IMG/VR virus record: IMGVR_UViG_3300032308_002010
Span: 96,001-160,000 of that record
Direction: 5' to 3' (one strand)
From: a virus
Length of the DNA stretch: 64,000 nt
The translations under genes and the position numbers were made by a program. Positions 17,909-21,270 of the stretch are shown in pieces. The stretch's first letter is position 1. Each line of letters starts with the position of its first letter. Under the pieces are notes generated by a model, which saw only the letters and a list, made by a program, of their open reading frames with translations, did no database searches and was not told where the DNA came from.

Positions 17909-17911
17909 GTA

Positions 17912-18256
17912 TGGAGGCGGCGGGAATCGAACCCGCGTCCAGAGATATCTCCAGAAAGAACGTCTACGTGTGTAGGCAGTTGTTGTTTACACTCCTGCCA
18001 AAGTTAGCCGATTATCGGCGTCAGGTGGGCTACCACCATCTTGCCCTTTCTTACTGGGCCAGATCAGCCGATTATCGGCGTCAACCTGATTGGGCAATAA
18101 GGCTCAGGTCGCCTCACTCACTGGCCTATTAACTAGGCAGCGAGGGCCGGAGCATAAGCGCCAGCTAGAAACGTAATCGGCTTTTAACGTGGCCCACCGA
18201 TCAACCACGACACGCAGTCCTAACCTTCCTTATCCTGTCGAAACCAGTACGCCCCC
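17912..18256 (-). ncRNA. ssrA: tmRNA; tag (A)GAYAPALAA
   Basis: 5' GGGGGCGTACTGGTTTCGACAGG; 3' GGACGCGGGTTCGATTCCCGCCGCCTCCA with G3.U acceptor pair; pk1 CGTGG/CCACG x GATCGG/CCGATT; TAG-CT-GGC resume context and ALAA-stop. Confidence 0.95.
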
Positions 18257-18478: not shown

Positions 18479-18552
18479 TAACCCGGGTGGGAATCGAACC
18501 CACAACAAGTAGATCCTAAGTCTACCGCCTCTGCCAATTGGGCTACCGAGTT
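18479..18552 (-). tRNA. tRNA-Leu(UAG), short variable loop, no encoded CCA
   Basis: Full cloverleaf; GTAGA-CT TAG GA-TCTAC. Confidence 0.9.
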
Positions 18553-18722: not shown

Positions 18723-18863
18723 CTAAGTATTGTTCGCGCATTCTTTCTTTTCAAGCTGCCGTTCCTTCTTCCAGAAAAGGCGTTTGCCGAACGGCTTCAT
18801 GTGCTTATTGCAGTCCATCGTCTTTGGGCGTACGTGAAGCAGTCCGCGTTTCTTTGTGGTCAT
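18723..18863 (-). CDS. small basic protein
   Basis: MTTKKRGLL...KPFGKRLFWKKER; SD AAAGGA. Confidence 0.5.
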   Translation of the reverse strand: MTTKKRGLLHVRPKTMDCNKHMKPFGKRLFWKKERQLEKKECANNT

Positions 18864-18888
18864 GTTGTTCCTTTGATAACAAAACCAA

Positions 18889-18908
18889 TGGGCCACCGGA
18901 GAGTCGAA
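18889..18908 (-). pseudogene. tRNA 3' remnant (T-loop to discriminator)
   Basis: TTCGACT-CTCCG-GTGGCCC-A with no matching 5' half; cut at the HNH insertion boundary. Confidence 0.7.
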
Positions 18909-18910
18909 TC

Positions 18911-18939
18911 TTGCGTTTTTGTTGTCTTCCAACTACACT
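18911..18939 (+). promoter_or_regulatory. sigma70-like promoter of the HNH gene
   Basis: TTGCGT-N17-TACACT, then GGAGG (18954-58) and ATG at 18963. Confidence 0.65.
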
Positions 18940-18962
18940 GCGTTATTCCAAACGGAGGTTTT

Positions 18963-19457
18963 ATGCGCTGCGTCAATTGCAACATAGAGACAACAAATCC
19001 GCGTTTTTGTGGCCGCTCGTGTTCGGTTAGTTACAACAATCGCCGCGCGCCAAAAAGAAAAAAACAAACACAAGCGTGTCCGAATTGTTTAACCCAATTT
19101 TTTAAACGCGTAAACAGCAATCAAACGTTCTGCAGCGTTCAATGCCGCAAAACAAATTACTGCGCAAAAATTACTGCGGCTGGTCGTTTTGATATTAACG
19201 GTCAACCCAGCAGCGTAACTGTGCGCAAGTTTTTAATTGTTACGTCCGGCAATATCTGCGCTGTTTGCGGTCAAACCGGTAACAACTGGCGCGGCCAACC
19301 ATTGACGCTAATTGTTGACCACATAGACGGAAACGCCCGCAACTGGAAAATTGAAAACATTCAACTTGTGTGTCCAAACTGCGACAGCCAGCTACCAACG
19401 TTTAAAGGTAGAAACAAAGGTAAAAGCACACGCAAATACACAATCATTCAACGCTAG
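18963..19457 (+). CDS. HNH homing endonuclease inserted antisense in the tRNA array
   Basis: Two CxxC..FCxxxC zinc repeats and C..CG..W.G.PL.L.VDHIDG...N..CPNC. Confidence 0.9.
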   Translation: MRCVNCNIETTNPRFCGRSCSVSYNNRRAPKRKKQTQACPNCLTQFFKRVNSNQTFCSVQCRKTNYCAKITAAGRFDINGQPSSVTVRKFLIVTSGNICAVCGQTGNNWRGQPLTLIVDHIDGNARNWKIENIQLVCPNCDSQLPTFKGRNKGKSTRKYTIIQR

Positions 19458-19558
19458 TACGCCCGCAGGGAATCGAACCCCGACCTACAGGTAATCAGCC
19501 TGTATCCTTTCGGACCGAGAATATAAGTCTCGTGTGCTAACCGTTACACCACGGGCGC
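19458..19558 (-). tRNA. atypical 101-nt tRNA-Ile carrying two anticodon-like arms (UAU and GAU)
   Basis: Acceptor GCGCCCG/CGGGCGT+A; D arm GTGT/GCAC; CGAGA-CT TAT AT-TCTCG; GTCC-GAAA-GGAT; ACAGG-CT GAT TA-CCTGT; AGGT; T arm CGGGG-TTCGATT-CCCTG. Confidence 0.85.
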
Positions 19559-19628
19559 ATATCTCGCGTGGGCGGGGCGCCAGCAGCTTGGGCTACTGCC
19601 AGCGCCCCGCCGTCAGCGAGTCTACGCT

Positions 19629-19991
19629 TCAGCGGTAGCGCTTGCACGCATACCACCGGCCATCCCTGCCACGCGCGACCCCTTGGTCTACAACCGCTCT
19701 GCCGCTATTGCTATAGCAGCAGTTTCCCAGCGCCTGCTCGGGCGTTGAGCCCATGCCGACGCCTTCATAACCGGCGTTGCCACCGTGATGTCCCATGCGG
19801 CCATTGCTAGCCTGCAGCTCGGCTACGCCCTGTGCCGTGGACGTATGCCCGGCATAAGAACTAGCGTAGGAATAGGACTTCACTGGAACCTGCGCCTGAG
19901 ACGGCGTGTAAGACCGACGGTGCCGCGGGGCAGCATGCGCAACGCTGACCAGCGAAAGAGCGACGGCTACACACACGAGAAAACGGAACAT
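19629..19991 (-). CDS. exported protein of a planctomycete-like family
   Basis: Signal peptide ending AHA; C-terminal YEGVG...A..NCCY.......GVARG..G.WYACKRYR. Confidence 0.7.
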   Translation of the reverse strand: MFRFLVCVAVALSLVSVAHAAPRHRRSYTPSQAQVPVKSYSYASSYAGHTSTAQGVAELQASNGRMGHHGGNAGYEGVGMGSTPEQALGNCCYSNSGRAVVDQGVARGRDGRWYACKRYR

Positions 19992-20053
19992 AACGATCCT
20001 CCGTGACCATGCCGCGGGTGTGCGCGACATCAAAAAACCAACCCCACACCGGG

Positions 20054-20422
20054 TTATAAGCATTCGGCGTTTTTAGTCGCCAGAAAAACTGTGTCGGCAG
20101 TTTCTGTATCGTCGAGATATTCGACTATCTCGCGCATGTAGCTTACGGGCGGCATAGGCGACCAGCTTTTGGCGCGCTCGGCGTCGTACGGCTGCCAATG
20201 GGGCGCGTCGCAAGCGTCGACGAGGCCCCAATGATTGTTGTGAAAAAGGTGCGGACACAGCTCGATGTCTGGGTTGCCTTTTTCGCTTTTAATCGAGTTA
20301 GGCGTGAAGCTGTACTTGCCTATTCCAACGCCGATGTTGGGACCGAAGTAGTAAACTTCTTGTCCTTCCTGCGGCGGGTCTTTGTGAGACGACCGCCAAC
20401 CAAACCGATCTGGTTCTGACAT
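20054..20422 (-). CDS. hypothetical protein
   Basis: GGAGG SD; coding-like ORF. Confidence 0.7.
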   Translation of the reverse strand: MSEPDRFGWRSSHKDPPQEGQEVYYFGPNIGVGIGKYSFTPNSIKSEKGNPDIELCPHLFHNNHWGLVDACDAPHWQPYDAERAKSWSPMPPVSYMREIVEYLDDTETADTVFLATKNAECL

Positions 20423-20537: not shown

Positions 20538-20611
20538 TAGGGCCGGTGGGACTCGAACCCACAACACAGGGATTTTAAGTCCCTTGACTCTGCCAATTGG
20601 TCTACGACCCC
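20538..20611 (-). tRNA. tRNA-Leu(UAA), short variable loop
   Basis: Cloverleaf; AGGGA-CT TAA AA-TCCCT. Confidence 0.9.
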
Positions 20612-21196: not shown

Positions 21197-21270
21197 TACC
21201 CCCTCTAGGATTCGAACCTAGGACCCACGGATTAAAAGTCCGATGCTCTAACCAGCTGAGCTAAGGGGGC
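21197..21270 (-). tRNA. tRNA-Lys(UUU)
   Basis: Cloverleaf; CT TTT AA loop. Confidence 0.95.

Follow-up and report, generated by a model that had tools for sequence, protein, structure and literature searches.

The question raised by this locus is whether one short gene that displays two isoleucine anticodons, UAU and GAU, encodes a genuine tRNA, and, if so, which anticodon is read on the ribosome and what the other arm is for. The window, namely the whole stretch of 64,000 nucleotides that was analysed, comprises bases 96001-160000 of an IMG/VR phage record (193.8 kb, about 95% complete), and all coordinates refer to it. The original prediction, made from the sequence alone, described a tRNA-Ile in which a normal acceptor, D and T arm frame encloses a UAU arm (arm 1), a spacer hairpin with a GAAA tetraloop and a GAU arm (arm 2), followed by AGGU and ending in a discriminator A. 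This anatomy was borne out by the sequence, by folding and by Rfam (Table 1).

Table 1. Positions of the structural elements of the tRNA-Ile(UAU) gene and of its immediate flanks in the window
Feature	Position	Strand	Basis or remark
Whole tRNA-Ile(UAU) gene, 101 nt	19458-19558	-	Rfam RF00005, fold, sequence
Acceptor 5′ strand GCGCCCG	19552-19558	-	Partner 19459-19465 CGGGCGU; G1.U72 wobble
D arm GUGU-AACGGUUA-GCAC	19534-19549	-	G18 G19 present; sequence, fold, covariation
Arm 1, decoding anticodon arm CGAGA-CUUAUAU-UCUCG	19516-19532	-	Anticodon-arm slot in Rfam alignment; UAU = 19523-19525
Spacer hairpin GUCC-GAAA-GGAU	19504-19515	-	Minimum-energy fold; 4 bp including G.U, GNRA tetraloop
Arm 2, GAU-display arm ACAGG-CUGAUUA-CCUGU	19487-19503	-	GAU = 19494-19496
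AGGU linker, arm 2 to T stem	19483-19486	-	Resembles 3′ part of ordinary short variable loop
T arm CGGGG-UUCGAUU-CCCUG	19466-19482	-	Rfam alignment, fold, covariation
Discriminator A73	19458	-	Sequence
Perfect 17-bp G+C-rich hairpin	19571-19611	-	12 nt upstream of tRNA 5′ end; fold
Convergent ORF, HNH-endonuclease-like C-terminus	18801-19457	+	Stop codon abuts tRNA 3′ end

The gene was matched by Rfam RF00005 with 53.9 bits (gathering score, 29) over all of model positions 1-71; in the alignment, arm 1 occupied the anticodon slot, and the next 30 nt were treated as an insertion in the variable region, which comprises 33 nt. All six helices were recovered in the minimum-energy fold (-39.3 kcal/mol, z = -2.5). 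The frame carries the canonical U8, A14, G18G19, T loop, U33/A37 and A73, and its D arm has a 4-bp stem and an 8-nt loop. C32 and U33 accompany the UAU of arm 1, and A37 was assigned in this analysis. CCA is not encoded (CUA directly follows A73). In secondary-structure terms, arm 2 fills the region of the long variable arm (positions 45-48) of class II tRNAs, and no complementarity of its loop to the arm 1, D or T loops was found on inspection by eye. The original prediction had proposed that covariance models and tRNA callers be run; besides the Rfam match, this revealed that ARAGORN missed the gene in default mode and, in intron mode, called it Ile(GAU) with a 30-nt "intron".

On the 3′ side, the convergent ORF gave Pfam matches to HNH_3 (22.5 bits) and HNH (18.2 bits) that were weak and below cut-off, and Pfam searches of the neighbouring ORFs yielded nothing more than this weak HNH match. 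The sequence 3′ of the tRNA differs in the related contig L004, which points to the insertion of a homing endonuclease in this phage and in G001. On the 5′ side, the 17-bp hairpin lies between the tRNA and an upstream ORF (19629-20063, minus strand); the 82-nt leader including it was predicted to fold with about -50 kcal/mol, no T-run follows it, and the portion of it visible in contigs L003 and L004 is conserved. The hairpin may act in termination or in processing. No sigma-70-like promoter was found next to the tRNA gene by a consensus scan. Farther away in the window, a minus-strand block (25744-46442) consists of very large structural genes. Two of them encode collagen-repeat proteins (776 and 730 aa), one a protein carrying the tropism-determinant domain Mtd_N, and two further products, 1740 and 1266 aa long, gave no Pfam match; the block is 71-77% identical to a 198-kb relative, as against 83-98% in the upstream tRNA-cluster region.

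Independent copies of the gene were then considered. The identical 101 nt were present in the separately assembled 198-kb phage, which came from another metagenome and has flanks about 98% identical, and 100 of the 101 bases were shared by a 44-kb contig with flanks about 86% identical; the gene is therefore more conserved than its surroundings. The sole mismatch of the L004 copy falls in the linker (AAGU instead of AGGU). BLASTN of the locus against 50,697 GenBank phage records gave no match. The checks named by the original prediction, a search for homologues with a covariation test of both arms, were performed on an alignment (A1) of 22 two-hairpin homologues, and covariation was strong in both arms. 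Base pairs were formed in 95.6% of cells as compared with 63% after shuffling (0/500 shuffles reached this value), double-sided changes numbered 178 versus 49 in shuffles, and no measure was reached by any of the 500 shuffles; when the pairing partners were slid, pairing fell to 36-45%. All seven acceptor pairs covaried and were 100% paired, and all five pairs of arm 1 covaried. The inner 4 bp of arm 2 were paired in all 22 homologues, with three or four pair types each and compensatory changes, and the outermost pair, which is formed in the window gene, was formed in only 8 of them. To judge from these substitutions, structural selection acts on both arms. An assembly chimera or a pseudogene in decay, to which the odd length and the miss by default ARAGORN might point, has practically no chance of being correct and is already refuted by the homologue data, given identical or near-identical copies in independent assemblies that are conserved beyond their flanks, compensatory changes in every helix and 138 distinct homologues.

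These 138 unique sequences, from phages, metagenomes and bacteria, were collected by pattern scans that differed in what was held fixed. A pattern fixing both loops retrieved only the near-identical relative and one chance match. In scan (a), the D arm and the UAU loop were fixed and everything downstream was left free; the matches included ordinary-length tRNA(UAU) and two new long forms with a single extra hairpin carrying the loop CAGAUUA. In scan (b), which was viral, CTTATA, a 26-52-nt gap and the T loop were fixed, pairing was required in the acceptor, arm 1 and T stem, and the extra region was unconstrained; GAU was found in the extra hairpin loop of 31 of 33 unique phage sequences, on stems unrelated to one another, and the two exceptions had UUCG or GGACGA loops. 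Many matches to loose patterns were ordinary tRNA-Ile(GAU) with CTTATAG in the acceptor stem, or coding sequence, and were removed by the pairing filter. In scan (c), CAGATTA and the T loop were fixed and the anticodon was left free; UAU was recovered in 92 of 95 unique tRNA frames (87 parsed directly and 5 more on inspection), and the three remaining frames were Leu-like tRNAs of class II in which the motif occupied a different place. Taken together, scans (b) and (c) indicate that GAU display and the UAU anticodon are coupled in both directions. GGAC or UUCG replaces GAU in a few relatives (L083, L060, G239); GGAC was seen in the extra loop of L083 and in the two copies (L542 and L548) of one alphaproteobacterial genome, G239.

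Further members were obtained from metagenomes (46 additional framed matches) and from one genome per prokaryotic species (77 matches), with GATTA fixed in both scans. The bacterial carriers belong to Acidobacteriota, Rhodobacteraceae (Ruegeria, Sulfitobacter, Roseovarius), Saccharibacteria and others; CCA is encoded in many of the bacterial copies, and in acidobacterial MAGs the gene lies within arrays of 10-21 tRNA genes. Over the 138 sequences, part of which came from the GATTA-fixed scans, the arm 2 loop was CAGAUUA in 99 and CUGAUUA in 17, and the stem closing this 7-nt loop was mostly 4-6 bp as called. The arm 1 loop was CUUAUA followed by A, C or U, its UAU with U33/A37 being invariant by construction of the scans and free in scan (c) only. 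A73 was found in 134/138 members and G1.U72, which is unusual for elongator tRNAs, in 81/138; G1.U72 also occurs in the Leu(UAA) (20538-20611) and Lys (21197-21270) tRNAs of this phage, all on the minus strand. About 20 distinct members make up the two-hairpin subfamily, whose arms are separated by a GNRA hairpin; in these, the spacer stem changes in a compensatory way (GCC/GGU, CCU/AGG, UGC/GCA, CCGC/GCGG, GCUC/GAGU) and the spacer loop is mostly GAAA, GUAA or GACA. Most members of the wider family lack the GAAA hairpin, and arm 2 forms a plain variable arm in them. The statement of the original prediction that long variable arms are foreign to Ile tRNAs thus fails, because a large natural class of tRNA(UAU) in phages and bacteria has one, and by sequence and predicted structure the window gene is a member of this large, conserved class, in which the variable hairpin has the size of an anticodon arm and displays GAU.

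Which arm decodes was judged from the loop positions. In arm 2, position 33 is occupied in most relatives by A, or else by C or G, and position 37 by U; the window gene has C32/U33 there, its U33 being the minority state in the family. A nucleotide other than U33 is unsuited to the U-turn, and U37 is unsuited to t6A modification. The family-wide state of positions 33 and 37 therefore argues against a second working anticodon and for display only. The best reading of the sequences is that arm 1 decodes AUA and that arm 2 is a non-decoding GAU display, and we consider it highly probable that the gene encodes a real AUA-reading tRNA-Ile with a conserved, non-decoding GAU arm. Among the roles that had been suggested for arm 2, a non-decoding aid to recognition by isoleucyl-tRNA synthetase (IleRS) is thus favoured, and a bifunctional tRNA with two working anticodons is disfavoured by positions 33 and 37. 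A fusion of two isoacceptors gained no support, the two arms being unrelated in sequence, and the notion of a decoy for anticodon nucleases found no support.

The opposite assignment, in which arm 2 is the true anticodon arm, arm 1 and the GAAA hairpin are an insertion or short intron, and the tRNA reads AUC/AUU or two codon families, is very improbable. It would agree with the call of ARAGORN in intron mode and with the C32/U33 of the window arm 2 and the AGGUC-like variable loop that follows. The hybrid stem of the intron model (5′ strand of arm 1 with 3′ strand of arm 2) was paired in only 41.8% on the homologues, a value reached by 264 of 500 shuffles, so that the conserved, flank-formed anticodon stem of an intron-containing tRNA is lacking and the suggested alternative processing gains no support. 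The states of positions 33 and 37 across the family, the return of UAU in scan (c) with the anticodon left free and the assignment of the anticodon slot to arm 1 by Rfam also count against it.

The meaning of AUA was examined by calling ORFs in this phage and in the 198-kb relative (median protein identity, 87%) and comparing the aligned codons. Changed ATA codons (n = 217) faced ATC/ATT in 110 cases, Val in 45, Leu in 16, Thr in 16 and Met in 10; ATT and ATC showed the same partner profile, and over 80% of the partners of CTA and TTA, unlike those of ATA, were Leu codons. The agreement of the ATA profile with those of ATT and ATC indicates that AUA is isoleucine in this phage lineage, the profile speaking to the meaning of the codon in the lineage and not being a charging assay of the window tRNA. 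ATA is used 371 times in the phage (6.3 per 1000 codons, 13% of Ile codons), and no second Ile tRNA was found in its genome. The minus-strand cluster that contains the window gene also holds a tmRNA and tRNAs for Leu(UAG), Glu(UUC), Val(UAC), Leu(UAA) and Lys(UUU), and Thr(UGU), Asn(GUU) and Gln(UUG) tRNAs were found genome-wide; all of these other tRNAs but one read A-ending codons. The tmRNA (17909-18256, minus strand; Rfam, 127.7 bits; tag peptide GAYAPALAA) stands at the end of the cluster. Bacterial tRNA-Leu normally has a long variable arm. The two tRNA-Leu genes here (UAG and UAA; 18479-18552 and 20538-20611, minus strand) are only 74 nt long with a 5-nt variable loop, so that in one phage the Leu tRNAs are without the long variable arm and the Ile tRNA has gained one.

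The behaviour of AUA as an Ile codon counts against recoding to Leu, Ser or Tyr via the long arm. We regard it as very unlikely that this arm makes the tRNA a substrate of LeuRS, SerRS or TyrRS, as in the nematode nev-tRNA-Ile(UAU), a class II tRNA that is charged with Leu (PMC3333845). The class II-like length, A73 (the discriminator of Leu and Tyr as well) and precedents in PMC3333845 and PMC5389517 would be in keeping with recoding. It is opposed by the exchange of ATA with ATC/ATT and Val in the manner of other Ile codons, with Leu in only 16 of 217 cases, by the preference of SerRS for G73 in view of the prevalence of A73, and by the 4-bp, type I-like D arm, and it leaves the conservation of GAU unexplained.

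More probable than recoding, though still improbable, is a tRNA-like RNA with a role outside translation, be it in regulation or in connection with toxin-antitoxin or mobile elements. Such roles were proposed for the abundant acidobacterial allo-tRNA-UAU, with "possible five-stem-junction structures" and no Ser suppression, by Mukai et al. 2017 (PMC5389517), according to whom the variants lacked Ser suppressor activity in E. coli, toxicity was seen with some of them, and their genes lay near toxin-antitoxin genes or transposons. The assay scored Ser/Ala insertion only, so that Ile charging would have escaped it. The HNH-like gene abutting the window tRNA might also fit such a role. The complete canonical tRNA frame with U33/A37 and A73, the location in a phage tRNA/tmRNA cluster reading A-ending codons, the large tRNA arrays around bacterial copies and the CCA encoded in many of these all speak for translation.

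For an AUA-reading tRNA-Ile with a GAU display arm, the charging enzyme was considered. Neither PF00133 (IleRS family) nor PF01171 (TilS) was matched in the phage, which would therefore rely on the host enzyme. E. coli IleRS charges tRNA-Ile(UAU) inefficiently; Trp905 in the zinc-binding domain is responsible, and W905R/K restores charging (Taniguchi et al. 2013, PMC3575796). Cyanothece PCC 7424 and Ferrimonas balearica, both with a tRNA-Ile(TAT) gene, are listed in that paper as having a Trp-type IleRS together with tilS; a surrogate identity role of the GAU arm would predict such an arm in their tRNA-Ile(TAT). All seven bacterial carriers of the armed form that were tested have Trp at the position of E. 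coli W905 (C-x-R-C-W) and possess TilS. In a sample of 301 alphaproteobacterial genomes, bona fide ordinary-length tRNA(UAU) was found only in two genomes of 0.5-0.6 Mb, both with a C-x-R-C-K IleRS and without TilS. The contrast between Trp and Lys runs in the direction predicted if the GAU arm stands in for the missing identity element, although it compares seven with two phylogenetically clustered genomes, few and related, and Trp is the common bacterial state. A sample of 201 genomes, taken from the phylum to which one Bacillota MAG belongs, contained no bona fide tRNA(UAU), ordinary or armed; the C-terminal CxRCW zinc motif was absent from IleRS in the four Bacillota genomes examined (eukaryote-type), and this sample therefore adds nothing to the IleRS correlation. 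An apparent ordinary UAU match in G184 was a tRNA 3′ fragment only.

A73 is a determinant of Ile identity. It is plausible, though we would not call it probable, that the GAU arm acts as a surrogate identity element for host IleRS. Arm 2 may present G34-A35-U36 (and A38) to a Trp-type IleRS, perhaps from the position of the anticodon arm upon binding, and the UAU arm would serve on the ribosome, where it would read AUA. We tentatively propose such a division of labour, in which the synthetase reads the display arm and the ribosome the UAU arm, as a third, portable route to AUA. In the complex of S. aureus IleRS, C32/U33 are read without base specificity (PMC11685878). In agreement with this, position 33 varies freely in arm 2, and the replacement of U33 by A, C or G and of A37 by U would prevent decoding of AUC/AUU by arm 2.

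The variable arm of a class II tRNA with the standard L shape is directed away from a class Ia synthetase. Recognition by IleRS would therefore need a rearranged or arm-swapped conformer, and it is conceivable from the dimensions of arm 2 and the AGGU(C) linker of the window gene that arm 2 takes the position of the anticodon arm. In a 105-kb phage contig (L018:1070-1370, minus strand), a two-hairpin UAU tRNA, a CAU tRNA and an ordinary-length tRNA(UAU) lie in a row within 300 nt, and ordinary tRNA(UAU) genes occur in other phages; the GAU arm is thus not universally required. All seven positions of the arm 2 loop are conserved (CAGAUUA in 99/138), including U at "37", and this conservation exceeds the known IleRS determinants and would also fit another sequence-specific partner.

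A working AUA-reading tRNA-Ile whose GAU arm serves a partner other than IleRS is somewhat unlikely in our judgement, and it is the alternative that survives best. The candidates are a host enzyme that modifies U34/U36 against misreading of AUG, a contact with the ribosome or EF-Tu, protection from nucleases and a purely architectural role. Besides the conservation of the whole heptaloop beyond GAU, the awkward geometry expected for IleRS and the coexistence of armed and ordinary tRNA(UAU) in L018 are in its favour. Mycoplasma mobile requires a special ribosome against misreading of AUG by UAU (PMC3575796), so that fidelity is a real second problem for tRNA(UAU), which counts for such a partner. 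Members of the family occur in Acidobacteriota, Alphaproteobacteria, Saccharibacteria and phages of very different kinds, and the partner must therefore be near-universal, as IleRS is. To our knowledge, no such partner is known; the loop triplet, moreover, matches the major Ile anticodon exactly and goes together with UAU, and the contrast between Trp- and Lys-type IleRS would be left unexplained.

AUA is decoded in bacteria by means of lysidine (TilS) or, rarely, by an adapted IleRS, and the GAU-armed class, if it works through IleRS as proposed, would add a third solution. A portable route to AUA, dependent neither on lysidine nor on an adapted IleRS, would then be open to phages and to many TilS-containing bacteria, and the arm would be a natural, transplantable module for synthetase recognition, bearing on the rules of tRNA identity, on phage codon usage and on the engineering of orthogonal tRNAs. 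ARAGORN overlooks the two-hairpin forms or reports them as Ile(GAU) with an intron, so that AUA decoders are under-counted in inventories of phage and MAG tRNAs.

Among known systems, the TilS-independent tRNA-Ile2(UAU) of the M. mobile type (PMC3575796) shares UAU, A37 and A73 with the window gene and reads AUA without lysidine, and it faces the same two problems, acceptance of U34 by IleRS and misreading of AUG. It has an ordinary 5-nt variable loop and a changed IleRS (Arg/Lys for Trp905), whereas here an extra GAU arm is present and the carriers tested keep Trp and TilS. Of the features by which that type is defined, UAU, a purine at 37 (A) and A73 are found in the window gene; the variable region is 33 nt instead of 4-5 nt, and none of the seven bacterial carriers of the armed form is a TilS-less host or has Arg/Lys at W905. 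The allo-tRNA-UAU (PMC5389517) shares UAU, a long extra arm and predictions of a five-stem junction. Allo-tRNAs have 8/4 or 9/3 acceptor/T stems, a long D stem with a tetraloop and mostly G73/U73 (Ser identity); the window gene has 7/5 stems, a normal 4-bp D stem and A73, and thus falls outside their definition. The acidobacterial matches with the CAGAUUA arm do have the allo-type long D stem and tetraloop, so that the allo-tRNA-UAU group is probably a branch of the GAU-arm family; in the part of PMC5389517 that is accessible, neither a function nor GAU display is assigned to it.

Class II tRNAs (Leu, Ser, Tyr, Sec) and nev-tRNA-Ile(UAU) share a helical arm between the anticodon and T arms, and nev-tRNA also has UAU. 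Their arms act through shape and have loops that are not conserved, whereas arm 2 has a conserved loop and the dimensions of an anticodon arm, and the codons say Ile. In place of the Leu, Ser or Tyr anticodon and identity and the non-conserved variable-arm loop of class II tRNAs, UAU and a conserved CAGAUUA/CUGAUUA are found. From bacterial tRNA-Ile1(GAU), arm 2 copies C32, G34-A35-U36 and A38; it differs in having U37 in place of an A that can be modified to t6A, mostly in lacking U33, and in not lying in the slot after the D arm. The AGGU(C) linker and A73 of the window gene also match the consensus of bacterial tRNA-Ile1(GAU). A 2026 paper on the C-terminal domains of IleRS mentions tRNA-Ile(UAU) only as "rare cases" (PMC13752280), and in the full-text literature open to searching without subscription, no description was found of a variable arm that bears GAU, of a second anticodon or of a mimic for IleRS. 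The GAU-armed tRNA(UAU) thus appears to be a new structural variant of tRNA-Ile(UAU) and, potentially, to embody a new mechanism of tRNA identity.
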